Below, in pieces: positions 1,175 to 37,789 of a stretch of 64,000 nucleotides of DNA. The stretch spans positions 896,001 to 960,000 of the forward strand of contig OZ244052.1 of NCBI GenBank assembly GCA_965215125.1. Direction: 5' to 3'. A program made the translations under genes and the position numbers. Numbering within the stretch: the first letter of the stretch is position 1; every line of letters starts with the position of its first letter. The notes beneath the pieces are model-generated. The model searched no databases and had not been told where the DNA came from. It worked only from the letters and a program-made list of their open reading frames with translations. Source of the stretch: an uncultured candidatus Porisulfidus sp. (GTDB lineage Bacteria > Pseudomonadota > Gammaproteobacteria > Poriferisulfidales > Oxydemutatoraceae).

Positions 1175-1999
1175 CTACCGTTTGCGGCGTGTGCCCAACA
1201 CACCGCGGCGGGGGTCGTAACCGTACACCGCCATCGTCATGAATAGTACGGCAACACCTACAACGATTAGGAAAGCCTGAGTGTTGAACTCCGAGTAAAG
1301 TGAAAAGCGGATCAATTCGACGATATGGGTGAACGGGTTGTATAAACAAATATCGTGCAGTAGCACGCTGGACTCCTTGATGCGCCACAAAGGATAAAGT
1401 GCCGAAGAGGCAAAAAACATCGGGAATATAACGAAATTCATAATTCCGGCAAAGTTTTCCAACTGTTTGATCACCGACGATATGAATAACCCGATGGCAC
1501 TCAACATAAACCCGGTCAGCAGCAATGTCGGCAGCAGTGTTAAATAACCTAAAGTGGGCGGGCGTATTTCCCAGAACCAGGCGATTGCAAGAAACACATA
1601 AACCTGTAGTATCGAGATGACGGTGCCTGCCAATAATTTATTGACCAACAAAAACCAACGCGGTGCCGGGCTAGTCAGTAGAATTCTCATGCTACCCATC
1701 TCGCGATCGTAGACCATAGACAAAGAAGTTTGCATCCCACTGAACAACTGAATCATACCGATTAATCCGGGCGTAATGTATTCCTCGTAAAGCACATAGG
1801 TTTGATAGGGTGGAATAATAGATACACCCAATACCGAGCGAAAGCCGGCAGCGAATATGAACAGCCACACCAAGGGACGTACCAACGCAGCCACAAAGCG
1901 TTCGCGTTGTTGCAGGAAGCGTAATATTTCGCGCTCGACGATGCCCAAGAAAAAATAAAAATAGCTAAGTAGCGTTAATTTTGCAGCACTTTGATTCAT
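1175..1999 (-). CDS. ABC-2 permease of PQQ-alcohol dehydrogenase-associated (PedC-like) transporter
   Basis: REILRFLQQRERFVAALVRPLVWL, SLSMVYDREMGSMR, FPMFFASSALYP; operon context. Confidence 0.88.
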   Translation of the reverse strand: MNQSAAKLTLLSYFYFFLGIVEREILRFLQQRERFVAALVRPLVWLFIFAAGFRSVLGVSIIPPYQTYVLYEEYITPGLIGMIQLFSGMQTSLSMVYDREMGSMRILLTSPAPRWFLLVNKLLAGTVISILQVYVFLAIAWFWEIRPPTLGYLTLLPTLLLTGFMLSAIGLFISSVIKQLENFAGIMNFVIFPMFFASSALYPLWRIKESSVLLHDICLYNPFTHIVELIRFSLYSEFNTQAFLIVVGVAVLFMTMAVYGYDPRRGVLGTRRKR

Positions 2000-2006
2000 C
2001 GCTATC

Positions 2007-2729
2007 CTATAGAAGTTCGGCTAATTTTTTTCTCATCGCAATGGCTTCGTCGGTGTCGGTGAGTTGTTCGGCACTGCCGCGCAGCGCGATACTACCTTTT
2101 TTGAGTATCAACATGCGGTCGTCGGCTTGAACCTCGTCGAGCAGATGCGTAGTCCATAATACCGACAAACCTTCGCTGCACATTTTGCGTACATGCTTGA
2201 TAATCAGTTCACGGCTCTGCACATCCAAACCCACGGTGGGTTCGTCTAAAATCAGTAATTTGGGTTTGTTGATTAGGGCGCGTGCAATTTCTACGCGTCT
2301 CACTTGTCCGCCGCTGAGATACCTGATTTTGGTGTCCATTCGATCGGTCATTCCGATACGCTCAAGTTCTCGGGTAGCGCGCGCCATGCCTTCCTTCGAC
2401 GACAAACCGTACAAATGCGCCGAGTACTTAAGATTTTGGCGTACGCTTAGATCCATGTCCAGAGAGCGTTGCTGAAAGACCACACCGAGTTGCAATAAGG
2501 CTTTGGATGGTTTTTTGTGCATCGCACAACCGCAGATAGAAATTTGCCCACGACGGCTATGGTAAAGACCGGTAATCAGAGAAAATAATGTTGTCTTCCC
2601 GGCACCGTTGGGACCTAATAGTATGGTGAATTGACCGGCGGAAACCGAGAAGCTAATCGCATCGAGTGCCTTGATTGTTCCGTAGTTATAGCTAACTCCG
2701 TCAACTTTTAGAATTTCTTGCAAAGACAA
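2007..2729 (-). CDS. ABC ATP-binding protein (PedB-like)
   Basis: Walker A GPNGAGKT, LSGGQ signature, LILDEPTVGLD. Confidence 0.9.
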   Translation of the reverse strand: MSLQEILKVDGVSYNYGTIKALDAISFSVSAGQFTILLGPNGAGKTTLFSLITGLYHSRRGQISICGCAMHKKPSKALLQLGVVFQQRSLDMDLSVRQNLKYSAHLYGLSSKEGMARATRELERIGMTDRMDTKIRYLSGGQVRRVEIARALINKPKLLILDEPTVGLDVQSRELIIKHVRKMCSEGLSVLWTTHLLDEVQADDRMLILKKGSIALRGSAEQLTDTDEAIAMRKKLAELL

Positions 2730-3307: not shown

Positions 3308-4288
3308 TCAGCTGTCTTTGATTGCTACACCCCAAGGATAACTTCCGACCGCTATAGATTTTATTACCTTTTGGCTTTCAATATCTATAACCGAGATATC
3401 GTTGCTGACACCGTTCGTCGTATACACTCTGGTTTCGTCGGCATTGAAATCCAACTGCCAGACCCGTCTGCCGACCAATAGATATTTCTCCACTTCAAGG
3501 TTTTGTACATCTACTACGGCAACACGGCTCGCAGGTCCTAGTGCCACGAATGCGTACTTGTCGTCATCGGTGATGCGCACGCCGACCGGCTGTATTTCTT
3601 CTTTCTTCAGACCGGGGATCGAAAATTCAATGTCCTTTATTATTTTAGGGTTCTTTGCGTCGATCACGCTGACCGTGCTGCCGAGTTCGGCCGACACCCA
3701 GACCTGCTTGCCGTCGTGTGTGAATTCGGCAAAACGCGGGCGTGTTCCGACCAGCACATTAGCAGTCAATTCGCGGCTTCCGACATCCAGAAAGTGTGCC
3801 ATATTGCTCGTCTCCGATGTAACAACAACTGTTTTGCCGTCGGGACTAACGCCCACACCTTCGGGCTCCTCACCGACCTCTATTTCCGCAACGATTTTTC
3901 TCGCTGCGATATCAACGATCGAAACTTTGGCATCATCCTCGTTGGCAACATAGATCGTCGTGTTGTCCGGAGAAATTGCCATCAGTTCGGGATCGGGGCC
4001 GGAAGGCAAATTGCCGATTATTTCATGGGTAGCCAAATCAAGTATTTGGATTGTATCGTCGTCGCTTGCACAGATATAAAGAAACTTTTGCTCTCTACCC
4101 ATGATAAGCCCACGCGGCCGTTGCCCAACCTTGACGGTTTTAATCACTTCTAGTGATTCACCGTCGATAATACTGAGCGTATTATCCTTTTCGTTGGAAA
4201 CATAAATCGTTTCGGCAAACAAAAGTGGACTACACATGATAAGCGTAAAAAATACCATCCGCTTCAGATTACTTAAAAAATAAGACAT
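3308..4288 (-). CDS. YVTN beta-propeller repeat protein, PQQ-catabolism associated (PedA2-like)
   Basis: Signal peptide; YVSNEKD, YVANEDD, YTTNGVS repeats; GGAGG RBS before ATG 4288. Confidence 0.9.
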   Translation of the reverse strand: MSYFLSNLKRMVFFTLIMCSPLLFAETIYVSNEKDNTLSIIDGESLEVIKTVKVGQRPRGLIMGREQKFLYICASDDDTIQILDLATHEIIGNLPSGPDPELMAISPDNTTIYVANEDDAKVSIVDIAARKIVAEIEVGEEPEGVGVSPDGKTVVVTSETSNMAHFLDVGSRELTANVLVGTRPRFAEFTHDGKQVWVSAELGSTVSVIDAKNPKIIKDIEFSIPGLKKEEIQPVGVRITDDDKYAFVALGPASRVAVVDVQNLEVEKYLLVGRRVWQLDFNADETRVYTTNGVSNDISVIDIESQKVIKSIAVGSYPWGVAIKDS

Positions 4289-4302
4289 TTTATTACCTCC
4301 TG

Positions 4303-5538
4303 TCATCGTTTAACTTCATTGAGTTTACACTCTACTTCGTAGTCATCAAAACCCATTGTATCCAACTGGGATCTTTGATGAAGAAACTGGTTTTGAGGGG
4401 AAACCGAAACTAGTGAAGTCGGCGACACCAGTAATATCGGCTGGCGTAGTTGTTGGTTCCAAGGGCGGAATGTCATCGGTTGTCCCTTATATCCCGCTAA
4501 TTCGAATTTGTCGCTGATGATATACGCTGCTATATCGTTGCTGTCTACCGATTGCGAGCGAGTGACGGCTTCGCTTATGCTGCGTATTGCCGACCATACA
4601 CCGTAATCTTTTTCCGACATATAGCGTTCAAAGTTGTTGTGAAAACGTTTTTGTATTTGTGCCGCCCCCCACTGTTCGTGCGCTCTGTGCCAAGCGACCG
4701 GCATCAATCCTTGCGAACCTACCACCACCGAAGGTTTCCAAGTCCGATACATCAGGTATTCGCCGAATTCTCCGACCATATCGGCAACGACCAGCACATC
4801 GTAGTCCGGTGCATCTTGAGTAAAGACCGGCACGGTGGAAGCTGCGGTGCGGCGCATATCGGCGGTATCAAAGTCCCATTTTTTCTCGGCCACGATTTTT
4901 CCACCGAACTTTTTCGCTGCGCGCCGCAATGCTGCCGCAAAACCGGCATCCGATTTTCTCTTCCCTTCTATCAAAAACCATCTGTTCCATTTTTTCACGA
5001 TTAGATATTGAGCGAGTGCGTCGGCGCGCATCGCATGACTCGGTGTGAAGTGAAAGATATTTTTTCGGCATTGTTCGGTGCGTAGAAAATCGTCGTCTGC
5101 GTCGATATTATAAAACCACGATTGTTTGCCTTGTTCCGAATCGGCCGTGGCAAGCAACTCTTCGGCATCCAGATTGACGACGAAATGTCGTATGCCTTGC
5201 TTGAATAAATCGTCCAAAGCTTTTGCCGGATCGTCGTTCTCCCCGAGGATGGCCGATTTGAGCGTGTAGTTATGACCTAAGAATTTTCCGGTCGTATTGC
5301 TATCTTTTATACCTTGCATACCACCGAGCAGACCGTCATCTTCGGGCGGTAGTTCTATATTGGACATTTTGGGCAATACTTCGGTCTCTTTTTTGATATA
5401 GGCAATGTCAATATTTTTGACGGTTTGTTGGGCAATCGCCGTTGCGGTAAATCCGAATAGGCAAATCATCGCAAGGACATATTGCATCAGCCACCGTGGA
5501 TATTGAGGCTGTGATAAGAAGGGTTTGTTGTGACGCAT
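4303..5538 (-). CDS. ABC substrate-binding protein, PQQ-ADH system (PedA1-like)
   Basis: DSNTTGKFLG, MRADALAQYL, HEQWGAAQ, FRPWNQQLRQPILL, LDTMGFD motifs; operon context. Confidence 0.88.
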   Translation of the reverse strand: MRHNKPFLSQPQYPRWLMQYVLAMICLFGFTATAIAQQTVKNIDIAYIKKETEVLPKMSNIELPPEDDGLLGGMQGIKDSNTTGKFLGHNYTLKSAILGENDDPAKALDDLFKQGIRHFVVNLDAEELLATADSEQGKQSWFYNIDADDDFLRTEQCRKNIFHFTPSHAMRADALAQYLIVKKWNRWFLIEGKRKSDAGFAAALRRAAKKFGGKIVAEKKWDFDTADMRRTAASTVPVFTQDAPDYDVLVVADMVGEFGEYLMYRTWKPSVVVGSQGLMPVAWHRAHEQWGAAQIQKRFHNNFERYMSEKDYGVWSAIRSISEAVTRSQSVDSNDIAAYIISDKFELAGYKGQPMTFRPWNQQLRQPILLVSPTSLVSVSPQNQFLHQRSQLDTMGFDDYEVECKLNEVKR

Positions 5539-5577
5539 GGTAGTATCCTAAATATTTAGAGAGGGGACATAACTTGC

Positions 5578-6438
5578 TTACAATTCAAATTCTAAGCCGA
5601 TGCCGGCCCATGTTTGATCGTCATATTCTCCTTCTGCATCCTCGTTGTTGCGTTCGCGGCGGAGATTTTCCTCGGCAAAGGAGTGTGTAGCATACGCCCC
5701 CAAACTAACCGAGTCGGTCAACGGTACGGTGACCGCTAAACCAATAAGTATGTTGTTTAGTCCGTCGTATTCATCGGTAACATAACCGAAATCAATCAAG
5801 GCACCTACATAAGGTTCTATGCTGAAACGCTCCATCTCTATTTCTCTTGCCAGTTCAACTTCAACCATACCACCGTCCGCTTCTGTAGAGTATGTATAAG
5901 ACAAGTCCGGATTAATCTCAAAGGGCAAACATCCGTCGCATGAGAGGCTTAGGAAAAACTCGTGATCGTTAGGTTCTTCCTCTTCTTCGTCTTCATCCAT
6001 GTCACCGTCACCGTTCCCGTTCTCTTCCTCCTCGTCTCCTTCATCCTCATATACCCAGGTATAGCCGAGTGTCATGCTGTAGTCATTCCACTCCCACTCC
6101 TTACCTACGGTTAACTCGGATTCGCGAAAACTGCCCGACTCTCCTAGTTCTAGAACTACTAACTCGGCTCCGATAAAGAAACTCGGCACTTCAAAATCTC
6201 CGATTTCCAATCCTTCAAATTCAACCTCAAGCTCCGGTGTGAATACGGCGCGCCCCGGCACCTCAACGATACCTTCTTCTACAAATCTGTTGCTAAAAAA
6301 TAATTCTAACTCGGCGGAAATACCCTCTTCGTCATCGTCGTCATGATTGTCTGCATGAACGAACGAACTAAAACTAAGAACGATGAGAGACAAGCCGACA
6401 CATAAAAGATAAAGTAATCTTTTCTTGAAATTAAACAT
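5578..6438 (-). CDS. Putative outer-membrane beta-barrel (porin-like) with poly-acidic segments
   Basis: RBS GAGGAG before ATG 6438, signal peptide, amphipathic beta-strands, C-terminal WAGIGLEFEL; D/E tracts DDDDEEG and EDEGDEEEENGNGDGDMDEDEEEEE. Confidence 0.7.
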   Translation of the reverse strand: MFNFKKRLLYLLCVGLSLIVLSFSSFVHADNHDDDDEEGISAELELFFSNRFVEEGIVEVPGRAVFTPELEVEFEGLEIGDFEVPSFFIGAELVVLELGESGSFRESELTVGKEWEWNDYSMTLGYTWVYEDEGDEEEENGNGDGDMDEDEEEEEPNDHEFFLSLSCDGCLPFEINPDLSYTYSTEADGGMVEVELAREIEMERFSIEPYVGALIDFGYVTDEYDGLNNILIGLAVTVPLTDSVSLGAYATHSFAEENLRRERNNEDAEGEYDDQTWAGIGLEFEL

Positions 6439-6748: not shown

Positions 6749-7474
6749 ATGATAGATAACAAACTCAATTATCCGCATTTACTATTGTTGCAGTGGCTTA
6801 TTTTCATTTTTGTTTTAACATTCTTTACATGGTTGGCGTGGCAGCAAGGCGTAATACAAGATGTTCTAAAAACGGATCCGACCAGACTCTCTTTGATAAT
6901 CATGCTGATTTTTATCGTCGGCACTATCCATTGTGCGATACGCAGTGTGTTCTTGTCGCGACAATTAAACGAATTAGGAAAAATCATCAACGCACCGGGC
7001 AAATTACATTTTGCCGATAACCGCTTATATTTTGATAATCAAGTGCTAGCTTCGTCGTTGATAGCCGATTATTTGGTCGGCGTTTTTCGTTACCGCCAAT
7101 CGTTGGCCGATCAAGCCGGCGCGCAGCAAGCATCCAAACTTGACGAAGTATTAAGCGAGCACGCCAACGGCTCGCACGAAAGCGGGTGGTTTTTTTCGCA
7201 GTTGTTGATCAAGCTGGGATTGCTGGGAACCGTCATTGGTTTTATACTCATGCTGAAATCGCTATCTAGTTCGTCGTTGTCCGATGTTTCGCAAGTTTAT
7301 GTGTTATTCGGTGATATGGCACAAGGTATGAGAGTAGCACTCAACACCACATTAACCGGGTTGCTCGGTGCGATGTTGCTCGGGCTGCAATATCTGATGT
7401 TGGATCGTGGTGCCGATCGCTTGTTATCCGGTGTAACCCATTTCGCCGAGACTTACCCCGAGACGACCGAGTAA
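6749..7474 (+). CDS. MotA/TolQ/ExbB proton channel family protein
   Basis: Four hydrophobic helices; KLGLLGTVIGF and GMRVALNTTLTGL motifs. Confidence 0.88.
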   Translation: MIDNKLNYPHLLLLQWLIFIFVLTFFTWLAWQQGVIQDVLKTDPTRLSLIIMLIFIVGTIHCAIRSVFLSRQLNELGKIINAPGKLHFADNRLYFDNQVLASSLIADYLVGVFRYRQSLADQAGAQQASKLDEVLSEHANGSHESGWFFSQLLIKLGLLGTVIGFILMLKSLSSSSLSDVSQVYVLFGDMAQGMRVALNTTLTGLLGAMLLGLQYLMLDRGADRLLSGVTHFAETYPETTE

Positions 7475-7494
7475 AAATTCTTTTCCCAGATACG

Positions 7495-8106
7495 ATGGCT
7501 TTTAAGCGACAGGCACGAACCGCACTTGCGATGGATCCTTTCACCGATTTACTATTCAATGTGTTGCTGGTGTTTACTTTTTTATTTATGGTTGCAATTA
7601 TTTTTTTAAATCCGACATCCAAGGACGGCAATGTAGAATTAAAAGCCGAATATATTATTACGGTCAAATGGCCCGATCAAAGTCCGGACGATGTCGATAC
7701 ATGGGTAGAGGATCCGCAAGGACATCTTGTTTGGTTTAATAATAACGAGGCTGGTTTTATGCATTTAGATCGCGACGATCGCGGCACGAGCAACGATACG
7801 ATAATGGTTGACGGCAAAGCAGTCGTCAATCCCTTGAATCAAGAAATAGTAACGCTCAGAAAACCGATCCCGGGCGAATACACCGTCAACCTACATTACT
7901 ATAAATCCAATACCAAGAAGCCGGTAACCGCCGAGGTGACCGTGTCTAAGGTGAACCCGTGGCTTGAAATCGTCTACTACGGTGAAGTACTACTGGAGGC
8001 AACCAACTCGGAACGCACCGCAGTACGGTTCAGCGTCAAAGAAGACGGCAGCGTAGGCGAAATCAATACGCTACCGAAGTCTTTGGTTACCGTGGAGCCG
8101 ATATGA
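7495..8106 (+). CDS. ExbD/MotB-like single-pass partner with periplasmic beta domain
   Basis: DPFTDLLFN: Asp at the start of the only TM helix, directly after a MotA/ExbB gene; DDVDTWVEDP and LDRDDRG motifs. Confidence 0.65.
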   Translation: MAFKRQARTALAMDPFTDLLFNVLLVFTFLFMVAIIFLNPTSKDGNVELKAEYIITVKWPDQSPDDVDTWVEDPQGHLVWFNNNEAGFMHLDRDDRGTSNDTIMVDGKAVVNPLNQEIVTLRKPIPGEYTVNLHYYKSNTKKPVTAEVTVSKVNPWLEIVYYGEVLLEATNSERTAVRFSVKEDGSVGEINTLPKSLVTVEPI

Positions 8107-8615
8107 GTGCCGCGCTTATCGCAATCGTCACCGCTTATGTTGCGCTTGCGGTTTTGCTGCTGGGGTTATGTCTTTATTCGAGATGGCCGGTATGGGTTAA
8201 GGGAGGCGCGATCGTCTTGACCGGCTTTTTTTATTATGCAACCTATTTCTCTTTGCAGGGCTTGCTCGGGTGGCCGACACAAACCGATTTGCCCGTTGAA
8301 TTTATTTTATTGGCAGGCAAAGTAGAAGAACCCGCAGAAAAAAATAAAGACGGCGGTGCAGTCTATCTGTGGGCATTGCCGTTGGATGAAGAGAAAATCA
8401 AAGGTATGCCTCGCGCGTATAGAATGCCGTATTCCAAGTCTCTGCACAATAAAGTCGCCGCAGCCAATAAGAGGTTGCGCCGCGGTATCCCTCAAGTCGG
8501 CAAGCTCAAGAATGTCATCGTGCCGCAGCCGGGCATGGGTCGGACTTTGCTTGTGGAGCCTACACAACGCATTGACATTTACGACTTTCCCGACCCCGAA
8601 TTGCCCGACAAATGA
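8103..8615 (+). CDS. Hypothetical membrane protein (2 TM plus soluble domain)
   Basis: ATGA overlap with upstream gene; two N-terminal TM helices. Confidence 0.75.
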   Translation: MSAALIAIVTAYVALAVLLLGLCLYSRWPVWVKGGAIVLTGFFYYATYFSLQGLLGWPTQTDLPVEFILLAGKVEEPAEKNKDGGAVYLWALPLDEEKIKGMPRAYRMPYSKSLHNKVAAANKRLRRGIPQVGKLKNVIVPQPGMGRTLLVEPTQRIDIYDFPDPELPDK

Positions 8616-9328
8616 ATACCACGATGCTGTTTAGAATTTGTACGGTTGCGGTTGTTGCCGCGTGTATGGTTGCCTGCGACCGTGGCAAAGAAATGACTAG
8701 CAGCTATTTTCCGTTGCAACAGGAATTGGAATGGAACTATCTGGTTGTGAGTGAAACCCCTTATGATCGCAACGAAAGCGAACTGAAAATTGACAACGCC
8801 GGAATTTGGGAAGATAAAAATAAGCAGTACCATGTCCGTAGAACGAATACCGGAAACTACTACTATATACAAGACCGCAACGACGGCATTGTGCGAGCGA
8901 CAAAACGGACAATCGTCGAGGCTTACCCGCGTCTGGGCGTTGCCGAGCGTTATATAATCAAATATCCCGTGCAAGCAGGCACGCAGTGGTCGCATAAGGC
9001 CAAGCCTTATCTACTCGCTCGGCATACCCCTACCAGCAACGAACTCAAACAGATCGTCAATTACACAATGGATTGGGAGATCGTCGGCAACGACGCAAAG
9101 ATATCGGTGCCTGCGGGTGAATTTGAAAATTGTCTTCATATTCAAGGTAAGGCTTTGGTTGAGGTGCCCCGATCTCTGGGTGTTGCCACGGACGAAGTTT
9201 GGTTTGAAACCAATGAATGGTACGCACCGAATGTGGGGTTGATAAAACTCGTCCATGAAGAGAAAGCGTATTCCGACCAAGCATACGGTGGTTCCATATC
9301 GCTGGTTTTAATGTCTTTTAACGATTGA
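8612..9328 (+). CDS. Hypothetical lipoprotein
   Basis: ATGA overlap; lipobox-like MVAC; beta-rich with SVPAGEF and WYAPNVGLIK motifs. Confidence 0.75.
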   Translation: MNTTMLFRICTVAVVAACMVACDRGKEMTSSYFPLQQELEWNYLVVSETPYDRNESELKIDNAGIWEDKNKQYHVRRTNTGNYYYIQDRNDGIVRATKRTIVEAYPRLGVAERYIIKYPVQAGTQWSHKAKPYLLARHTPTSNELKQIVNYTMDWEIVGNDAKISVPAGEFENCLHIQGKALVEVPRSLGVATDEVWFETNEWYAPNVGLIKLVHEEKAYSDQAYGGSISLVLMSFND

Positions 9329-10061: not shown

Positions 10062-10119
10062 AATCAACATATCGGTGATAGCGTAAATTACGTTATTGCG
10101 TATGCCCCCCATAACAGCG

Positions 10120-10869
10120 ATGAATATTAAAAAATTCCCGTTTATTCCGATTGCTTCGGTGGCAGCACTCATCACTATATGGTGGCTGGGTTCTTTAGGT
10201 TTAGGCAGGGATTCATTGCCGACCCCGCTGGATGTACTGACAGTCATAACCCGATACACGGAAAGCGGTGAATTATTCGTCCATATCGGCATCACGCTAT
10301 GGCGCGTGATTGCCAGCTTCACACTTGCCATCGTCATAGGTATGACGATCGGATTGCTGATGGGTGCTTCAATGAGAGCGAACGAAATACTCGATCCGTG
10401 GTTGTTGTTTTTTCTCAATCTACCGGCATTGGTCGTCATCATCCTCGCCTATATCTGGTTGGGGTTGACCGAAGTCGCCGCAGTACTTGCGGTTGCCGTC
10501 AATAAAATACCCAATGTCGTCGTGACTTTACGCGAAGGCGCACGCGCTATGGATAGCGGTTTGCAAAATATGGCACTCGTATTTCAATTCGGCTGGTGGA
10601 AAAAACTACGCCATGTCGTCATGCCGCAGTTGGCACCCTATATCGCGGCGGCAACGCGCTCGGGTATCTCGTTGATCTGGAAGATCGTGTTGGTGGTGGA
10701 ACTGCTCGGGCGCAGCGACGGTGTGGGTTTTCAACTGCATCTGCAATTTCAGTTATTCAATATCGCCGGGATTATGGCGTGGGGTTTAACCTTTGTTATT
10801 ATTATGCAGTTCGTGGAGTTGTTTTTGGTGCAACCCTTCGAACGATATGTCAACCGATGGCGCAAATGA
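10120..10869 (+). CDS. NitT/TauT-family ABC permease
   Basis: TM helices, EAA-like loop (REGARAMD...), WKIVLVVELLG. Confidence 0.9.
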   Translation: MNIKKFPFIPIASVAALITIWWLGSLGLGRDSLPTPLDVLTVITRYTESGELFVHIGITLWRVIASFTLAIVIGMTIGLLMGASMRANEILDPWLLFFLNLPALVVIILAYIWLGLTEVAAVLAVAVNKIPNVVVTLREGARAMDSGLQNMALVFQFGWWKKLRHVVMPQLAPYIAAATRSGISLIWKIVLVVELLGRSDGVGFQLHLQFQLFNIAGIMAWGLTFVIIMQFVELFLVQPFERYVNRWRK

Positions 10870-11606
10870 TGTCCACGCCATTGCTCTCGGTTAAGGTCGA
10901 TAAAAAGGATTTTATGCGCCACGACGGAAAACGAATTTCGGTGCTGCGCAATGTTGCGTTCACCATTCCGGATCACGAATTGATTGTCATCACCGGTCCG
11001 TCGGGTTGTGGAAAAACAACACTGCTCAATCTTATCGCCGGACTCGATGCCGACTACCACGGACACATTGAACTACCGCCGAATCCCGACGGTGAGTTGC
11101 CGCTGTCTTATGTATTCCAGAGACCTTGCTTATTACCGTGGCGCACATTAAAAGAAAACATCATGCTGGCTTTGCCCTCGCCACAACACAGCGAAGCAGA
11201 AGTTACATCGCTATTGGAAAAAATGGGCATAGCCGACGCCGCCGATAGTTATCCGAATGCACTGTCTTTAGGTATGGCACGGCGCACCGCCCTGGCACGC
11301 GCATTTGCGGTAAAAGCACCGTTGCTATTGATGGACGAAGCATTTTCATCCATAGACGAACTCACCTCGCAGCGGTTGCGAGAATTGCTTTTGTCGCAAC
11401 TGGAAATCTCATCGCGTATCGTCATTTTCTTGACGCACAACCTGCGCGAAGCATTATTCTTGGGCGATCGTCTGCTGGTCATGTCTAAACGGCCGTCCAC
11501 CGTGGTTGCCGATCTATCGTTGCCGGGAACGCGTGGCCGCCCGCCTGCCGAAGTTGAGTCATTGCATAAAGAAATTTTAGACCAATTCCCGAACATACTC
11601 GGATAA
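10866..11606 (+). CDS. NitT/TauT-family ABC ATP-binding protein
   Basis: ATGA overlap; GPSGCGKT, LSLGMARR, LLMDEAF. Confidence 0.9.
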   Translation: MMSTPLLSVKVDKKDFMRHDGKRISVLRNVAFTIPDHELIVITGPSGCGKTTLLNLIAGLDADYHGHIELPPNPDGELPLSYVFQRPCLLPWRTLKENIMLALPSPQHSEAEVTSLLEKMGIADAADSYPNALSLGMARRTALARAFAVKAPLLLMDEAFSSIDELTSQRLRELLLSQLEISSRIVIFLTHNLREALFLGDRLLVMSKRPSTVVADLSLPGTRGRPPAEVESLHKEILDQFPNILG

Positions 11607-11669
11607 TAAAACTTTATCTATTGTATTGATAAATATAATTATTAGTATTTGTTGTTTTTTAGCAACAGT

Positions 11670-11691
11670 TTTGTATCATTTTTGTATCATT
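11670..11691 (+). promoter_or_regulatory. Tandem 11-bp direct repeat upstream of porin (possible response-regulator box)
   Basis: TTTGTATCATT x2, perfect, ~110 bp before the porin start. Confidence 0.4.
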
Positions 11692-11798
11692 ACATATTTA
11701 CTTGCTTTATACTACAGGGCATCTAATTATTTAGATGTGTTAGTGGCTTGATTTCAAGCCTAATATTTAATCAGATTAATAACCCTCGGGAGGATAAA

Positions 11799-13136
11799 AT
11801 GAAATATCTCAAAAAACTAACAGTAACTATGATTAGCTGTTTACTCTTTACAATACCCACATCTGCATTCGCCGATGCATTTGAAGGTTTATCGATGATG
11901 CGCATGGGCGCATGGGAGGTTGACTTCAGCGGTAACGTAAATGCTTTTGCCACCATAGGCGAATGTGATCCGCAAATAGAAGGTACTTTAGTCGGAGGCG
12001 GTTTAGCCTGTCTAGGAAACGCTAACGACGAAGATTACACCGATGTCAGAGATGGTCTATTGCCGTCATGGTTCAACTTCACCGCTGCGACGGTCACCGA
12101 TAGCGGCATCAGAACCGCCGTTCATCTCAGTTTCCAGCCTGGTACCAGTACTGGGCCTAGTGGTATAGGTATTAATAGAGATGGTGCTCTAGGTCAAAAT
12201 GATGTTAACTTCCGCCAAGTCTTCTTGACTTTCGGCACCGAACAATGGGGCACGATCAAGTTGGGACGCGATCTGGGTGTCTTCGGCAGCGATGCAATCC
12301 TAGAAGATATGACGCTGCTTGGTGTCGGGTCGGGTGCAAATCTTGATGGCCACACTACGCTAGGTCGTATTGGTGTCGGTTATTTGTATGCCGACTGGAA
12401 AGCCCAAGTCCAATATACCTCGCCGAACATGAACGGTTTTACATTCACTGGGGCGATCGTTGATCCTTGGGAAGCAGGTACGCTTGCTGGTGCTCAATAT
12501 AGCCGCGTTGGTGCTCAAACTCAAGAAGATGATACCTATGGTATTGAAGCCAAGCTCAACTACAACTATGCGCTGGGTGACACTTCGGTGAAATTCTGGG
12601 CAGGCTATATCCGCCAAGATTTAGACTTTGAGGACGGCAACGATGCCGAAGCCGATGGTTATGATATCGGTGTCAAGTGGGGCCACGGCAGCTTTGATGT
12701 CGTCGGCTACTACTACGACGGCGAAGGCATCGGCACCACCGGTTTTCTGTTGGATGGCTTGGATGCCGACGGCAACGAGCGCGACTCGGACGGTTTTTAT
12801 ATCCAAGGTCGCTACCGTATGCCTACCGGAACCCTGCTCGGAGTCAGCTACGGCGAAAGTTCGCTGGACGAAACCGCTTATGACCGGACACAGAAAAACA
12901 TGGATAGAGCGAGAATAGCAGCCCTTACACCAACAGCAATAGCAGCAGACCCTACTCTCACCAACCCCACATATAACTTGGTTGATACCAACGAATCTGT
13001 GGTAGTCGGTCTTTATCATCCGATAGGTGAAGCGTTAAATTTAGTGCTTGAATACACCGATACCGAAGCCGAATCGCATAGCGGCATCACCAACGAGGAA
13101 ACAACATTGGCAATCGGTGCCATTATGTTCTTTTAA
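11799..13136 (+). CDS. Gram-negative outer-membrane porin
   Basis: GGAGG RBS, signal peptide, FRQVFLTFG...WGTIKLGRD, C-terminal AIGAIMFF. Confidence 0.9.
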   Translation: MKYLKKLTVTMISCLLFTIPTSAFADAFEGLSMMRMGAWEVDFSGNVNAFATIGECDPQIEGTLVGGGLACLGNANDEDYTDVRDGLLPSWFNFTAATVTDSGIRTAVHLSFQPGTSTGPSGIGINRDGALGQNDVNFRQVFLTFGTEQWGTIKLGRDLGVFGSDAILEDMTLLGVGSGANLDGHTTLGRIGVGYLYADWKAQVQYTSPNMNGFTFTGAIVDPWEAGTLAGAQYSRVGAQTQEDDTYGIEAKLNYNYALGDTSVKFWAGYIRQDLDFEDGNDAEADGYDIGVKWGHGSFDVVGYYYDGEGIGTTGFLLDGLDADGNERDSDGFYIQGRYRMPTGTLLGVSYGESSLDETAYDRTQKNMDRARIAALTPTAIAADPTLTNPTYNLVDTNESVVVGLYHPIGEALNLVLEYTDTEAESHSGITNEETTLAIGAIMFF

Positions 13137-13740: not shown

Positions 13741-13795
13741 TTTGCTTGCTACCTATTATTTCATTAACTCAACAACCCATATGGAGAACATTATT

Positions 13796-14782
13796 ATGGA
13801 AAACAAACAACCCGTCACAATTGGCGTTGATGTCTCTAAAGAGACTTTAGAAACAGCTCTATTATTCACCGATAATAGTTTTGCCGAGCAGCAATTCAGT
13901 AATGATGCCAAAGGCATTAAACAACTGTTATCTTGGGCTACCGAGCATGGTGCGCAACAGTGTCGCCTCTGCGTTGAGGCAACCGGCGGTTTTGAGCTAG
14001 ACCTGTGCATGGAAAGCTATGACCAACATCCCATCACGATTGTGCCACCTGTACAGGTCGCGAGCTACCGCAAAACGCTGGGTATGCGTAATAAAACCGA
14101 TGGCGTTGATGCGCAACTCATCGCACGCTTCGCATTTGCAGTCGGTGATATTCAAGACTGGGAACAGCCTACCGAAGCAGTATTCGCCTTGAGAGATACA
14201 CTGAAATGGCGCCGGCAATTAACCAAGTCCCATACGCAGTTAAGCAACTGTGCAAAGACGCTGCGCAGTATGCAGCTCAAAAAGAAGGCAGCTGCAGAAC
14301 TCGCTCACCTCCAGAAGCAAATCCATGAGTGTGACGCCTTACTTTACGAAATCATCGCTGAAGACGAACAACTCACACAGCAGTATCAATTGCTCTGCTC
14401 TATTACTGGAATCGGAACTCAAACCGCAGCCACCCTATGTGCAGCTTTTGATGATAATACGTTTCAACACCCAAAGCAACTTGCCGCCTATATCGGCATC
14501 ACTCCGATGCGCAAGCAATCCGGCAACTACGAGGCGAAGGCGCACATCTCTAAAATTGGCGATGCACACCTGCGCACCGCACTATTTATGGCGGCACTCT
14601 CGGCTCGGGTTCATAACCCAATCGTCCGTGCGTTCGCCGACCAGTTAAGCCGGCGGCGTCCGGATTTAACCAAAAAGCAGGTTATTGTTGCTTGCGCCCA
14701 TAAACTGACGCGTATCATTTACGGAATACTCAAGCACAAGAAACCGTTTGACCCGAATTATTGTTGCGTATCTGCGTCCTAA
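13796..14782 (+). CDS. IS110-family DEDD recombinase/transposase
   Basis: GVDVSK, VEATG, KTDGVDA (DEDD) and QSG (Tnp-domain Ser); GGAG RBS before ATG 13796. Confidence 0.95.
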   Translation: MENKQPVTIGVDVSKETLETALLFTDNSFAEQQFSNDAKGIKQLLSWATEHGAQQCRLCVEATGGFELDLCMESYDQHPITIVPPVQVASYRKTLGMRNKTDGVDAQLIARFAFAVGDIQDWEQPTEAVFALRDTLKWRRQLTKSHTQLSNCAKTLRSMQLKKKAAAELAHLQKQIHECDALLYEIIAEDEQLTQQYQLLCSITGIGTQTAATLCAAFDDNTFQHPKQLAAYIGITPMRKQSGNYEAKAHISKIGDAHLRTALFMAALSARVHNPIVRAFADQLSRRRPDLTKKQVIVACAHKLTRIIYGILKHKKPFDPNYCCVSAS

Positions 14783-17772: not shown

Positions 17773-19581
17773 CCCTAATTCCGCAATAGACCACCTGCAA
17801 AAGTCCGTAATCTCTTATGTTGCAACACTCTCATGCATATTCCCAATTCACCCATTAGGTGAAACATAATTATTACTAATTTTTTACATAAAACTCTGTA
17901 CAACGCCTTATTTTTTTGTTACTATTTACCAATTAATAACTTCGGAGGTATTATGTCAAAACAAAAAAATCAGCACAATCAATCATCGTATACGCTAGCT
18001 ACCACCCACCAGAAATTGACCTCTCGTTGTGGTTTGTTGGCATTGATTAAAGTGCTCAAAGCACTACAACTTAAGCCACAAGCAGACACTGTGTTTGCGG
18101 CACCGGGTAGCAATCGTGGCTACCGCAATGGCGACATTCTAACGAGCTTCATCTTGATGCTCAACGAGGGTGCGAGATGCCTTGAGGATGTCTGCCATTT
18201 ACACACCGAAAGGGTGTTGCTTAAGCTGGGAGGTATTAACAAGATACCGGGAGCAGACACTTTGGCGAGGTGGTTGAAACGCCATGGTCAAGCCGGTGCC
18301 GGTTTAGTTCACCAGCTCAATCGCACGGTGATTGCCAAGACCCTGAAGTTGTGGAAAGTAAAGCATGTGACTTTGGATATTGATGCGACTACTATTTTGA
18401 CCGAGAAAGTCGGTGCTAAATGGACGCGTTTTAAGGAGCGTGGTTTCATGCTAATGGTCGGCACGCTAGCTGAAGTGGGTCAAGTCATCGCCGTTGAGTT
18501 GCGCCACGGCAATGTCTCCCCGAACTTTGATAATATCGGTTTCATCAAGACCTGCCAAGCACAGTTGCCGAGTGGCGTAATACTCAAGCGGGTGCGTATC
18601 GACTCGGCAGGGTATCAACAAGCAATCATTGAATATCTAGTAGCTCAAGGAATAGAGTTTGTTATTCGTGCGCCGATGTACCCGTCAATAGCGCAAGCGA
18701 TTGCTGGTCTGTCGGAAGCAGACTGGCGACCATTGCGATTAAGCGACGGCAGTTTATCACCCCACGACTATGTGGCTCGCTGCACTTATCAGATGTATCG
18801 CAGCAACCTCGTATTTACGCTAGTCATTCAACGCCGCCTCAAGAGCGAAGCCGCTCGACAGTCTAACCAACCGGAGTTGTCGGGACTGTCTGAACAGCTG
18901 CGCTATCAACCCGACAAGTATGACTATCGTGTGATTGCGACTAACATCAACGGGCTAGACGATGCACAGATTGTACATGAGTATAATCAACGCGGTGAGC
19001 ATTCCGAAAACCGCATTAAAGAACTCAAATCGGATTTTGTTGCCGGTCGTTTGCCGTGTAGTGATTTTGCTGCCAATGCTCTGTATGTTTGTGTGTGTGC
19101 TTTAGCCTACAATGTGTTCGCACTGATGCGTGCCGGCTTAGCTAAACAGTTTCGTTCCTCTAGAGCCCCGACGCTCAGGGTCCGCCTGTTTGGTTTAGCG
19201 GCGAAGATTGTACGACAGGGTCGGCAATGGAAGCTCAAACTACACGAAGTGCATCGTAGTTTATTGAGTGGAGTTTTCTCAGACCTTGATGAGACTATCG
19301 GCAAGCTATTGCCGGATATGCGATACCCCTTGCTACATTAACTAGCCACCTTATCTCTTCATTACTCATAAGGCATCAATCAAAGTAGATGCCATGCCCC
19401 AGCATACCCTAATACTAGAGATTAGAGTACTTTGATGCTTCATTTAGCTCTCAATAGGAGTTTATCTCCCGTCACCGAGCAATGATGTGGCATTCAGTTT
19501 CGGGTTCAGGCGATTGCCCTGATAATTTAGCAGTAAATTATCCATCACATGCAATTTTCATGCTCTATTGAGAAATTAGGG
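17773..19581 (+). mobile_element. IS1380-family element, copy 1 (1809 bp)
   Basis: IRs CCCTAATTCCGCAATAGA / TCTATTGAGAAATTAGGG; 5-bp TGGCA duplication. Confidence 0.93.
17953..19341 (+). CDS. IS1380-family DDE transposase
   Basis: LTSRCGL, TLDIDAT, LRHGN, RIDSAGY, YNQRG..ENRIKELK. Confidence 0.93.
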   Translation: MSKQKNQHNQSSYTLATTHQKLTSRCGLLALIKVLKALQLKPQADTVFAAPGSNRGYRNGDILTSFILMLNEGARCLEDVCHLHTERVLLKLGGINKIPGADTLARWLKRHGQAGAGLVHQLNRTVIAKTLKLWKVKHVTLDIDATTILTEKVGAKWTRFKERGFMLMVGTLAEVGQVIAVELRHGNVSPNFDNIGFIKTCQAQLPSGVILKRVRIDSAGYQQAIIEYLVAQGIEFVIRAPMYPSIAQAIAGLSEADWRPLRLSDGSLSPHDYVARCTYQMYRSNLVFTLVIQRRLKSEAARQSNQPELSGLSEQLRYQPDKYDYRVIATNINGLDDAQIVHEYNQRGEHSENRIKELKSDFVAGRLPCSDFAANALYVCVCALAYNVFALMRAGLAKQFRSSRAPTLRVRLFGLAAKIVRQGRQWKLKLHEVHRSLLSGVFSDLDETIGKLLPDMRYPLLH

Positions 19582-28134: not shown

Positions 28135-29916
28135 TTAGAGAGAGAATACAGTTAATACACCACCTAGGCGGGTATAGTTTTGTAGGTGACGATAGCCACC
28201 GACTGCACCCAAGCCATCGGAGTCTTCGGTCAATCCGGCAGCCATGCCTATGCCTGCCCAACCACCGACACCCGATAGGACAGCAACATATTGCGTGCCT
28301 CCGTGTTTGTAGGTCATAACATTACCGATAATCCCCGATGGGGTTTTGAACTTATATAGTTCTCTACCGGTTTTGGCATCAACAGCTTTCAGATAACCTT
28401 CAAGCGTACCGTAGAAAACGACACCGCCGGCTGTTGCCAAAGCACCGCTCCATACGGAGAACTTCTCTTCGTTGCTCCACTTAATCTCACCGGTACCGGC
28501 ATCCCAGGCAATGAAATTGCCCATGTGATCACCACCCGGAGCAGGATACATCTTGAGTGTAGCACCAACGTAGGGTTGCCCTGCAGTATAGCTCACTCTG
28601 AACGGCTCATAATCCATGCAGACATGGTTAGTCGGTACATAGAATAAGCCGGTCATCGGAGAGAACGCCGCCGGTTGTTGATCTTTGGTGCCTAGCGCAG
28701 CGGGGCAGATGTCGGTTGTATTGACATCTTCGCCTTGCTCACCAGGTGCATATTTAGCCACAACTTGCGGGCGACCGGTCTTCATATCAACGTGCGTTGC
28801 CCAGTTAACCACAGGGTCAAACTTTTCGGCAACCAACAATTCACCGGTTACACGATCAAGCGTATAGCCGAAACCGTTACGATCGAAGTGCACCAATGCT
28901 TTGCGCATTTGACCATTGACGGGAATATCGGCCAAGATCATCTCATTGATGCCGTCATAATCCCATTGATCCCACGGTGTCATTTGATAGACCCATTTGG
29001 CTTGTCCGCTATCCGCATCGCGTGCAAATATCGTCATAGACCAACGGTTGTCACCGGGACGCTGAACAGGGTTCCACGTGCTCGGGTTACCGGTGCCGTA
29101 GTAGACCAAGTTCACTTCCGGATCATACGAAAACCAGCCCCAGGTCGTGCCGCCACCAATTTTCCATTGGTCTCCTTCCCAGGTTGTCATACCTGAGTCT
29201 CTACCAACGGATTGGCCGAGGTGCGTCGTTGACGGTCCCATCAAAGTGTCGGAATCGGGTCCCATCGAGTAGCCTCGCCAGACTCTTTTGCCGGTATTGA
29301 TGTCGTATGCAGTTAAGTGACCACGAACACCAAATTCGCCGCCACTGATACCGATATAGACTTTGTCTTTGACAACCATAGGTGCCGCAGTACCGGTTTG
29401 TCCTTTGGAGATATCACCGTTTTTCGCACTCCAGATCATTTTGCCGCTTTTAGCGTCTAATGCGACCAGAGTGGTATCGGCTTGATGCAGGAATATCTTA
29501 CCGTCGCCATAAGCAACGCCGCGATTTACAGTATCGCAACACATCACCGGGATTGTTGCCGGATCTTGCTTAGGCTCGTATTCCCAAGCGATGCTTGCAT
29601 CGTTATCAAGATCCAGTGCCATCACTTTGTTCGGGAACGGTGTATGAACATACATCATATTACCAACCACCAGAGGGTTACCTTCGTGTCCTCTAAGAAC
29701 ACCTGTAGAGAAGGTCCACGCAACTTTCAGATCACCGACATTAGATGCAGTAATTTGATCTAACGAGGAGTATCTATGGTTGGCATAGTTACCAGTAGGC
29801 ATAACCCACTGATTGGGGTCGTCGGACATCTTCATAAGCATGCTGTTAGCATGCAGATTTGAAGTCCCGACCAGTGCAACTAATGTTGCAATAAAGAATG
29901 TAGATAATAATCTCAT
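28135..29916 (-). CDS. xoxF: Lanthanide-dependent PQQ methanol dehydrogenase XoxF
   Basis: [10 protein letters not shown], vicinal CC ([10 protein letters not shown]), WDYDG with the extra Ln-binding Asp; no mxaI; xoxG/xoxJ follow. Confidence 0.96.
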
Positions 29917-30255
29917 TTCTTCCTCCCTTTTGTACAAAAGAAAATAGAATCCATTCAACTCAGAAAATTTCATTTGCATGAAATTCCTCGGACCTCATGT
30001 CCTCGCACGAACAAACTTTTCTCTTATGCAGAGAAAAAGTTTCCACCTCCTCTCCGTTCTTTTATGACTATAGCAGAAAGACAGTATATTGTCCTTTTTA
30101 GAACGAACAATTTTATCAATTCAATTTGTACTAAAACATTTTCAAATAACCATAAAACATAAGCTATATAATGCTTTAACAATTGGATTAAAATAAATAA
30201 ATAAGGAAAATAGATAAAATAAATGTGATAATGCCCGTCGGGACATCAGAAATTT

Positions 30256-35980: not shown

Positions 35981-37789
35981 CCCTAATTCCGCAATAGACC
36001 ACCTGCAAAAGTCCGTAATCTCTTATGTTGCAACACTCTCATGCATATTCCCAATTCACCCATTAGGTGAAACATAATTATTACTAATTTTTTACATAAA
36101 ACTCTGTACAACGCCTTATTTTTTTGTTACTATTTACCAATTAATAACTTCGGAGGTATTATGTCAAAACAAAAAAATCAGCACAATCAATCATCGTATA
36201 CGCTAGCTACCACCCACCAGAAATTGACCTCTCGTTGTGGTTTGTTGGCATTGATTAAAGTGCTCAAAGCACTACAACTTAAGCCACAAGCAGACACTGT
36301 GTTTGCGGCACCGGGTAGCAATCGTGGCTACCGCAATGGCGACATTCTAACGAGCTTCATCTTGATGCTCAACGAGGGTGCGAGATGCCTTGAGGATGTC
36401 TGCCATTTACACACCGAAAGGGTGTTGCTTAAGCTGGGAGGTATTAACAAGATACCGGGAGCAGACACTTTGGCGAGGTGGTTGAAACGCCATGGTCAAG
36501 CCGGTGCCGGTTTAGTTCACCAGCTCAATCGCACGGTGATTGCCAAGACCCTGAAGTTGTGGAAAGTAAAGCATGTGACTTTGGATATTGATGCGACTAC
36601 TATTTTGACCGAGAAAGTCGGTGCTAAATGGACGCGTTTTAAGGAGCGTGGTTTCATGCTAATGGTCGGCACGCTAGCTGAAGTGGGTCAAGTCATCGCC
36701 GTTGAGTTGCGCCACGGCAATGTCTCCCCGAACTTTGATAATATCGGTTTCATCAAGACCTGCCAAGCACAGTTGCCGAGTGGCGTAATACTCAAGCGGG
36801 TGCGTATCGACTCGGCAGGGTATCAACAAGCAATCATTGAATATCTAGTAGCTCAAGGAATAGAGTTTGTTATTCGTGCGCCGATGTACCCGTCAATAGC
36901 GCAAGCGATTGCTGGTCTGTCGGAAGCAGACTGGCGACCATTGCGATTAAGCGACGGCAGTTTATCACCCCACGACTATGTGGCTCGCTGCACTTATCAG
37001 ATGTATCGCAGCAACCTCGTATTTACGCTAGTCATTCAACGCCGCCTCAAGAGCGAAGCCGCCCGACAGTCTAACCAACCGGAGTTGTCGGGACTGTCTG
37101 AACAGCTGCGCTATCAACCCGACAAGTATGACTATCGTGTGATTGCGACTAACATCAACGGGCTAGACGATGCACAGATTGTACATGAGTATAATCAACG
37201 CGGTGAGCATTCCGAAAACCGCATTAAAGAACTCAAATCGGATTTTGTTGCCGGTCGTTTGCCGTGTAGTGATTTTGCTGCCAATGCTCTGTATGTTTGT
37301 GTGTGTGCTTTAGCCTACAATGTGTTCGCACTGATGCGTGCCGGCTTAGCTAAACAGTTTCGTTCCTCTAGAGCCCCGACGCTCAGGGTCCGCCTGTTTG
37401 GTTTAGCGGCGAAGATTGTACGACAGGGTCGGCAATGGAAGCTCAAACTACACGAAGTGCATCGTAGTTTATTGAGTGGAGTTTTCTCAGACCTTGATGA
37501 GACTATCGGCAAGCTATTGCCGGATATGCGATACCCCTTGCTACATTAACTAGCCACCTTATCTCTTCATTACTCATAAGGCATCAATCAAAGTAGATGC
37601 CATGCCCCAGCATACCCTAATACTAGAGATTAGAGTACTTTGATGCTTCATTTAGCTCTCAATAGGAGTTTATCTCCCGTCACCGAGCAATGATGTGGCA
37701 TTCAGTTTCGGGTTCAGGCGATTGCCCTGATAATTTAGCAGTAAATTATCCATCACATGCAATTTTCATGCTCTATTGAGAAATTAGGG
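35981..37789 (+). mobile_element. IS1380-family element, copy 2 (1809 bp)
   Basis: Same IRs and TGGCA duplication as copy 1; identical protein. Confidence 0.93.
36161..37549 (+). CDS. IS1380-family DDE transposase
   Basis: Identical translation to 17953-19341. Confidence 0.93.
   Translation: MSKQKNQHNQSSYTLATTHQKLTSRCGLLALIKVLKALQLKPQADTVFAAPGSNRGYRNGDILTSFILMLNEGARCLEDVCHLHTERVLLKLGGINKIPGADTLARWLKRHGQAGAGLVHQLNRTVIAKTLKLWKVKHVTLDIDATTILTEKVGAKWTRFKERGFMLMVGTLAEVGQVIAVELRHGNVSPNFDNIGFIKTCQAQLPSGVILKRVRIDSAGYQQAIIEYLVAQGIEFVIRAPMYPSIAQAIAGLSEADWRPLRLSDGSLSPHDYVARCTYQMYRSNLVFTLVIQRRLKSEAARQSNQPELSGLSEQLRYQPDKYDYRVIATNINGLDDAQIVHEYNQRGEHSENRIKELKSDFVAGRLPCSDFAANALYVCVCALAYNVFALMRAGLAKQFRSSRAPTLRVRLFGLAAKIVRQGRQWKLKLHEVHRSLLSGVFSDLDETIGKLLPDMRYPLLH

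Follow-up and report, generated by a model that had tools for sequence, protein, structure and literature searches.

A hyper-acidic outer-membrane barrel gene at the head of a PedA1A2BC-type operon in an uncultured gammaproteobacterium, and its possible role as a metal-cation channel

How do lanthanide ions cross the outer membrane? So far this crossing is known only for TonB-dependent chelate receptors, and the locus described here raises the question of whether a small acidic barrel could provide another route. The window analysed is a stretch of 64,000 nucleotides (positions 896,001 to 960,000 of contig OZ244052.1, assembly GCA_965215125.1), which forms part of the complete 2.22-Mb genome of an uncultured candidatus Porisulfidus sp. 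(G000 below). On its minus strand, at 5578..6438 (stop codon included), it carries a gene for a hyper-acidic protein of 286 amino acids (aa), P0001, placed just ahead of genes resembling those of the lanthanide importer PedA1A2BC. The original prediction, made from the DNA alone, took P0001 for a porin that admits trivalent lanthanide ions (Ln3+) without a TonB-dependent receptor. The analysis reported here, in which all evidence is comparative and comes from uncultured symbionts, leads to a reading that is plausible but still tentative: P0001 may be a metal-cation channel of the outer membrane, encoded by a recent duplicate that was recruited to the lanthanide importer operon.

The open reading frame (ORF) of P0001 runs from an ATG at 6438 to a stop codon at 5578-5580. 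An alternative frame started by TTG reaches 6642; nevertheless, all 21 relatives found by a word-indexed search align from the ATG. A spurious ORF was ruled out by these 21 homologues, by the conserved columns of their alignment, and by a confident fold. The N-terminus, MFNFKKRLLYLLCVGLSLIVLSFSSFVHA, read by eye from the translation, is basic and hydrophobic in the manner of a signal peptide. The putative signal peptide spans aa 1-29 (6352..6438), is conserved in relatives, and ends in VHA, which we take to be the cleavage site under the AxA rule. The gene is identical in contigs from four DNA runs of two studies, and its acidic tract shows no indels there.

The AlphaFold2 (AF2) model, built from a 76-row alignment (mean pLDDT 88.6, pTM 0.80), predicts a signal-peptide helix at residues 2-26 followed by 12 long strands, the arrangement of the 12-stranded KdgM/NanC-like fold. 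Low confidence is confined to residues 25-38 and to the central acidic tract, with pLDDT below 50 at residues 25-32 and block means of 70 and 62 within the tract. A fold search (VIA) placed 12-stranded outer-membrane barrels on top, with KdgM at Z 17.0 (root-mean-square deviation 2.6 over 169 residues), VhGalP at 15.7, NanC at 15.5, and PcoB at 14.5; a COG4313 channel and autotransporter barrels were also among the matches, and Foldseek was in agreement. A barrel fold is near certain from this modelling, and the beta-barrel patterning that had been read from the sequence is borne out.

The mature protein contains 74 acidic and 9 basic residues, that is, 28.8% Asp plus Glu and a net charge of -65. 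Among the 1469 ORFs of at least 150 aa in the genome, for which the median acidic content is 11.9% and the 99th percentile 19.5%, its net charge is the most negative, so that the extreme acidity originally claimed for the barrel stands. This acidity is well above chance. A halophile-type acidic proteome was rejected as its cause, given that the proteome median is 11.9%. The charge is also unevenly placed. When residues were assigned to the two faces of the AF2 strands by hydrophobic alternation, not from coordinates, the putative lumen face held 22 acidic residues (Asp or Glu) and none that is basic (Lys or Arg), and the lipid face 2 acidic and 2 basic residues. At 17 of these 22 lumen positions, 85% or more of 15 close relatives have an acidic residue, and at seven so do at least half of 61 distant relatives; basic residues never exceed 7% at them. 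The wider family is acidic throughout (median net charge -22 for 124 representatives of 190-300 aa). Judged from these alignments, the trait conserved across the family appears to be the acidic interior, not the loops.

In outer-membrane barrels both termini are periplasmic, and by this rule the long connections L1, L3, and L6 of the model would lie outside the cell. The central acidic tract, EDEGDEEEENGNGDGDMDEDEEEEE (aa 131-155; 5974..6048), covers the end of strand 5 and most of loop L3 (aa 134-156), and a third tract, EDAEGEYDD (aa 266-274; 5617..5643), falls in L6; both would thus face outward. The acidic start of the mature protein, DNHDDDDEEG (aa 30-39; 6322..6351), with DDDDEEG at aa 33-39, would form a periplasmic tail, and the cysteine pair C167-D-G-C170 (5929..5940), at the end of strand 6 and in turn T3, would sit at a periplasmic turn. 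The signal-peptide-like N-terminus, the three acidic tracts, and the CxxC pair noted earlier for this gene are all present in the translation, and the structure prediction that had been suggested for placing the tracts puts them in L3, L6, and the N-terminal tail, on sides that follow from the presumed topology. The tail is present in the ped-linked clade discussed below and shorter in paralogues, and the third tract is an insertion found only in the three closest sequences. The cysteine pair is near-invariant only within a close subfamily, spaced as CxxC or CxC, and is absent from the wider family. The DNA of the central tract contains a weak 9-bp repeat, TTCTTCCTC. Three members of the ped-linked clade (P0003, P0004, and P0008) carry Met/Gly-rich inserts of the type MGGxM or MPxGM in L3, which presumably resemble methionine-rich Cu(I) motifs.

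The second line of evidence is the position of the gene. After a spacer of 39 bp (5539..5577) it is followed on the same strand by genes for a PedA1-type periplasmic substrate-binding protein (4303..5538; TIGR03863, 459.6 bits against a cut-off of 413.6), a PedA2-type YVTN beta-propeller protein (3308..4306; TIGR03866, 485 against 287.3), a PedB-type ATP-binding cassette (ABC) ATPase (2007..2729; TIGR03864, 315.3 against 302.25), and a PedC-type ABC-2 permease (1175..1999; TIGR03861, 399.4 against 241.35). The claimed position at the head of PedA1/A2/B/C-like genes is therefore confirmed, with all four NCBIfam cut-offs passed. A crude promoter and terminator scan, whose sites were overall no more frequent than in shuffled sequence, gave no minus-strand site around the spacer, and the barrel gene is presumably co-transcribed with pedA1A2BC.

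The wider setting also points to lanthanides. The window holds a ped-like oxidation island with pqqB, pqqC, pqqE, an aldehyde dehydrogenase, an acetyl-CoA synthetase, a MoxJ-like protein, a CXXCW protein, a methanol-type cytochrome c, and a pyrroloquinoline quinone (PQQ) alcohol dehydrogenase (28135..29979, minus strand; TIGR03075, 774.9 bits), the sole match above cut-off in the genome. The last of these contains WDYDG (D340-Y-D342) and is presumed to use a lanthanide: according to the accessible text of PMC11845868, XoxF and PedH bind the lanthanide through the second Asp, which lies two residues beyond the catalytic one and which the Ca enzymes lack. For Pseudomonas putida, the accessible parts of the publications report that PedH-dependent growth at low La3+ requires PedA1A2BC and that a LutH homologue was not found (PMC6839425). 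They also describe the outer-membrane route as unresolved, naming low-affinity porins as one option (a review of the ped cluster from 2026), and implicate pyoverdine, FpvA, TonB, and ExbBD (a 2026 bioRxiv preprint). The earlier remark that no lanmodulin is visible in the window agrees with a genome-wide search of ORFs by a crude EF-hand pattern, a weak test, which found no lanmodulin-like ORF.

How far does the linkage to ped genes extend? The taxonomic family (f1) is represented in the collection by 19 genomes, the present one included, of which five belong to its genus (g1) and 14 to five sister genera. PedA1 is present in 18 of the 19. The barrel gene adjoins pedA1 in four of them (G000, G301, G303, and G304), all from g1, within a neighbourhood that is collinear throughout. 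The adjacency is thus kept in each of the four g1 genomes with pedA1, across 67-92% protein identity; in the fifth (95% complete) pedA1 was not detected. At nine loci from sister genera, pedA1 instead faces a divergent exbB-like gene, either directly or across a 200-aa gene of unknown function. Outside f1, five gammaproteobacterial genomes have a near-full-length homologue of P0001; PedA1 occurs in none of them, and a PQQ alcohol dehydrogenase above cut-off in one. No ped genes were seen at the loci of family members from Kiritimatiellia. In a maximum-likelihood tree of 35 rows (chosen from the 21 close relatives, the f1 loci, and a few distant representatives, with many other representatives left out), the ped-linked copies form a clade with 100/100 support, nested in g1 beside unlinked paralogues, and for that reason the linkage to ped genes appears to be recent, derived, and later than the duplication.

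A different partner recurs in the sister genera. In six f1 genomes from three other genera (G254, G310, G309, G307, G311, and G314), the homologue lies immediately upstream of, and on the same strand as, a gene for a PF10634 Fe2+ transport protein of the P19 type, at gaps of 0-45 bp; the P19 assignment rests on PF10634 matches (E 4e-31 to 1e-24) in four genomes and on tblastn identities of 60-84% in the other two. In one genome from outside f1, CbiM is encoded two genes upstream of the homologue. The order of an acidic barrel followed by a periplasmic metal-binding protein hence recurs, with P19 as the binder in six genomes and a different one, PedA1, in four. This recurrence is the main ground for reading the family as channels for cations in the outer membrane, and for taking the ped-linked copy to have been recruited and not stranded.

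Other family members have less telling neighbours. The genome itself encodes an unlinked paralogue, 56% identical to P0001 by BLASTP and with the same features, which ranks fourth by acidic content among the 1469 ORFs and is flanked by an insertion sequence (IS) element and a truncated sugar dehydrogenase. Downstream of it, about 3 kb (L003 6356-9405) contain no ORF of at least 100 aa and may hold decayed genes or RNA genes. The homologue contexts in G306, G313, and G302 show no pattern, and that of G312 has a convergent PstS-like neighbour. In the g1 member without detected pedA1 (L077, G302:C1:12300-25100), the homologue lies just upstream of type III secretion-like genes for an SseC-like translocon protein, tetratricopeptide repeat chaperones, and a CesT-like chaperone. 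At another locus (L068, G309:C1:179000-193000), tandem barrel copies have the P19 gene downstream and lie beside a convergent gene for a 1705-aa Calx-beta protein with a net charge of -129. The P19-type gene of the present genome (G000:C1:527220-530973) is not adjacent to a family member; the genes before it encode a membrane protein of the PepSY type, a protein resembling RnfG/FMN-bind, and an acidic porin-like protein of 479 aa (net charge -37, N-terminal coiled coil).

If P0001 were an entry route independent of TonB, it might be expected to stand in for a receptor. A Pfam scan of 48 window ORFs (in the 16-64 kb part of the window, those of at least 150 aa) gave no match to a TonB-dependent receptor family, in agreement with the earlier statement that none is visible there. 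The whole genome yields a single plug/barrel match, located about 140 kb from the window and adjacent to thiC. This receptor is BtuB-like, its best match being the B12-receptor model at a score far below cut-off, and Rfam found no riboswitch around it. Plug-domain receptors number one in each of the five g1 genomes, one in each of the three genomes of genus g274, and two to four in each of the 11 genomes of the other four genera, counts that come from kin and not from independent samples. They are suggestive of a replacement of the receptor by the barrel in g1. Two sister-genus genomes have a receptor no more than about 6 kb from pedA1: G308, and G313, where it comes after an exbB-like cluster and dsbC; against NCBIfam, these two receptors gave only generic siderophore-type matches below cut-off and were not callable as LutH-like.

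To which family does P0001 belong? In Pfam and NCBIfam it matches no family at E <=0.01, including TIGR02001 and PF09694. An exhaustive search of 1.84 billion representatives returned 164 clusters at E <=0.001, 29 at <=1e-10, and one at <=1e-30, mostly of 220-270 aa and matching best in the C-terminal half. Among 41 family members scanned against Pfam, a single one reached a gathering score (P0028 to Porin_4, 27.1 bits against 27), the other 40 giving nothing or sub-threshold hints of porin, OMP_b-brl, or MipA; three of 76 members matched TIGR02001 in NCBIfam, with a best E of 9.2e-8. In the ESM Atlas, 26 of the 30 nearest clusters are unnamed, and in the rest a minority of members carries OmpA_membrane, MipA, or Gcw_chp. 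A metagenome scan with a closer alignment returned only two loci, one of which duplicates L009, and contributed nothing new.

Remote homology links the family to the TorF putative porins (TIGR02001 gcw_chp/PF09694). A profile-profile comparison (hhalign) of the 76-row alignment with 23 TorF-like proteins gave a probability of 98.6% and an E of 6.7e-16 over 194 columns, an E-value that is optimistic, as the 23 were picked by weak matches to the same family profile. That profile also finds, weakly (E 4.7e-7), the true TorF member of the genome, a canonical TorF-family putative porin at G000:C1:511754-512530 on the minus strand (TIGR02001, 176.5 bits; net charge -35). Both families have a signal peptide, a barrel-sized protein of about 240 aa, and an N-terminal motif of the type S-x-Y-V/I-x-(E/R)-G, and acidity is common in the named sister family, the 23 sampled proteins having net charges of -2 to -45. 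P0001 differs from TorF in its far larger number of carboxylates, the long acidic inserts in L3 and L6, its paired cysteines, and a hairpin insertion in turn T1. It scores below the TIGR02001/PF09694 family cut-off, while the profile comparison supports homology at the superfamily level; P0001 is accordingly placed here, on sequence grounds, in an unnamed acidic branch of a TorF-related superfamily. The literature retrieved under the names TorF and Gcw_chp amounts to one paper with a mere mention and no established function.

A working model can be proposed from these elements. P0001 would be a monomer-sized barrel acting as a passive channel selective for multivalent cations. Its poly-acidic loops and tail would draw metal cations in and raise their concentration at the cell surface, and a carboxylate ladder inside the barrel would pass them on by successive binding and knock-off, for which the acidic selectivity filters of calcium channels offer an analogy. 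The roughly 20 uncompensated lumen carboxylates would have to hold counter-cations, among which multivalent ions should bind tightest. From there the cations would pass to the periplasmic binding protein that the next gene encodes. In g1, where a recent duplicate stands first in the pedA1A2BC operon, this copy would supply PedA1 with the importer's substrate, most plausibly Ln3+, for use by the lanthanide-type PQQ alcohol dehydrogenase. The analysis shows the fold, the charge, the kinship of the family, and the gene orders; we infer the conductance, the carried ion, the lumen-facing residues, and the membrane orientation of P0001. An acidic lumen that conducts or binds cations is probable; that the barrel works together with the ped importer and carries Ln3+ is possible, though less likely than not. 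We consider unlikely the most specific version, in which a channel duplicated from a P19-iron channel in one symbiont genus provides TonB-independent, porin-type entry, captures trace Ln3+ in seawater or sponge tissue, and hands it directly to PedA1.

Several observations weigh against recruitment for lanthanide uptake. In none of the 14 sister-genus genomes does a family member lie next to pedA1, and in four genomes (G305, 100% complete; G308, 99%; G316, 97%; G317, 85%) none was found at E <=1e-15. The ped importer thus does not need the barrel, since PedA1A2BC occurs in sister genera without an adjacent copy or any copy at all. Genus g274 has neither an extra TonB receptor nor a ped-linked barrel, so that the inverse relation is not strict, and the sole TonB receptor of the present genome could itself carry a lanthanide chelate. 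No metal genes were seen near four of the five distant loci. Loop L3 ranges from 10 to 41 residues among 23 relatives, its composition shifting even between 90%-identical proteins, and the Met/Gly-rich L3 inserts fit a tuned Ln3+ site poorly. Of the expectations raised by the original prediction, linkage to xox or ped genes therefore fails beyond the four g1 genomes, in the sister genera as in the five genomes outside the family, and so does conservation of the acidic tracts, as the third is confined to the three closest sequences and L3 varies in length and composition. The inverse relation with TonB receptors is seen between g1 and four of the sister genera and is broken by g274. As for the lanthanide-entry porin itself, the barrel, its acidity, its adjacency to ped genes, and an alcohol dehydrogenase with the DYD signature speak for it, while the linkage is confined to one genus and the tracts are unconserved; the idea is thus supported in part and stands as a fair but weakened hypothesis.

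Could P0001 then be a general cation porin, or a channel for Fe2+, Ca2+, Mg2+, or another metal like its paralogue, with pedA1 as an incidental neighbour after a genus-specific rearrangement? Such an explanation is possible, if on the unlikely side. It would account for the derived, single-genus linkage, for the unlinked paralogue with the same features in the same genome, for P19 as the commonest conserved partner in f1, and for a wider family without links to ped or xox genes; the frequent IS elements of the window would make rearrangement easy, and the sister genera show the divergent exbB-like/pedA1 arrangement without a barrel. However, an incidental neighbour would hardly be expected to stay in place in four of four g1 genomes with pedA1 while their proteins diverged to 67-92% identity, nor to be joined by a same-strand spacer of 39 bp without a terminator-like site, and the repetition of the barrel-then-binder order seen with P19 suggests that the position is used. 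The acidic loops could alternatively belong to a non-transporting surface protein, anchored by its barrel, which binds Ca2+ or host material or varies under phage or host pressure. An L3 that changes in length and makeup between close relatives is typical of exposed loops that diversify or are driven by slippage, the closest named relatives come from sponge-associated metagenome-assembled genomes, and a sister genome has tandem copies beside the large acidic Calx-beta protein. But it is the interior and not the loops whose acidity is conserved, the repeated site upstream of periplasmic metal-binding proteins would be left unexplained, and the gene shows no variation within the population across the four DNA runs; we therefore consider this explanation improbable. 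Least credible, to the point of being very improbable, is that P0001 serves as the outer-membrane exit of an export pump of the ABC-2 type formed by PedB and PedC. These two do match the models of the daunorubicin-resistance exporter (drrA, drrB) and of NodIJ (nodI), yet below cut-off. The operon includes a substrate-binding protein, and Wehrmann et al., in the accessible part of their paper, argue for import from this binder and from growth data; moreover, a barrel of 12 strands and 257 residues lacks a duct through the periplasm, and the operons of the sister genera have no barrel gene. Taken together, the comparative data point to metal-cation uptake in general, with a genus-specific recruitment to the lanthanide importer.

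Several known outer-membrane proteins help to define what a channel of this kind would be. The closest in structure are KdgM, NanC, and VhGalP (PDB 4pr7, 2wjr, and 8xua), barrels of the same size. These sugar-acid porins have basic interiors. They carry acidic oligosaccharides, whereas the putative lumen of P0001 has 22 acidic and no basic residues, and at 7-11% identity and without a Pfam match P0001 falls outside their sequence families. The nearest functional analogue is PcoB (PDB 7pge). Its barrel is about as large, 194 of 198 residues aligning with P0001, and it is likewise encoded in a metal-handling operon (pco) and is described, in the accessible text of PMC9210255, as a solved outer-membrane barrel whose electronegative funnel admits Cu inward. 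Identity to PcoB is 9%, no Pfam or NCBIfam family places P0001 with it, and both the metal and the operon differ; the charge of PcoB is concentrated in its funnel, whereas that of P0001, as judged from strand alternation, would extend along the whole lumen in addition to the loops. LutH and LanA of methylotrophs share with P0001 its proposed role, the passage of lanthanide across the outer membrane to a Lut or Ped ABC importer, as far as the accessible descriptions go. They are plugged 22-strand receptors for chelates, energised by TonB, whereas P0001 is a plugless barrel of 257 residues, matches neither PF07715 nor PF00593, and would need diffusion of a free or weakly bound ion. Finally, in P. 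putida the ped cluster includes an outer-membrane protein gene, PP_2662, described in the accessible part of PMC12997753 as a putative porin for short-chain alcohols, and the likeness to P0001 lies in this membership of a ped cluster. Its counterpart in the window would more likely be the outer-membrane gene at 11748-13136 than P0001.

Upstream of the barrel gene, the window contains further genes that may bear on the ped system. A divergent four-gene cluster on the plus strand (6749-9328) encodes a MotA/ExbB-family protein (PF01618), a 203-aa protein with an N-terminal transmembrane segment that we take to be ExbD/TolR-like, a 170-aa membrane protein, and a 238-aa DUF3108-like protein. This cluster also faces pedA1 in sister genera without the barrel, and it may itself be part of the ped or lanthanide system. 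It is followed at 10096-13136 (plus strand) by a NitT/TauT-type ABC permease and ATPase and by the gene for the 462-aa outer-membrane-like protein, which has no family match; this set is conserved in the genus, and G313 has a TonB-dependent receptor at the corresponding site after dsbC. Insertion sequences interrupt the ped/pqq island: two DDE_Tnp_1_4 transposase ORFs that share both their length and their scores (17953-19341 and 36161-37549, plus strand), an IS110-type transposase ORF (37753-38682, minus strand), and a transposase-like ORF judged by eye (13742-14782, plus strand).

As the first gene of a PedA1A2BC operon, P0001 is a concrete candidate for a lanthanide route that is independent of chelators. 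With 257 mature residues, the protein is also attractive for structural, metal-binding, or separation studies. The gene orders in which its relatives recur provide a first functional lead for this unnamed family and for its TorF relatives, and suggest that it may serve periplasmic metal-uptake systems as their partner in the outer membrane.

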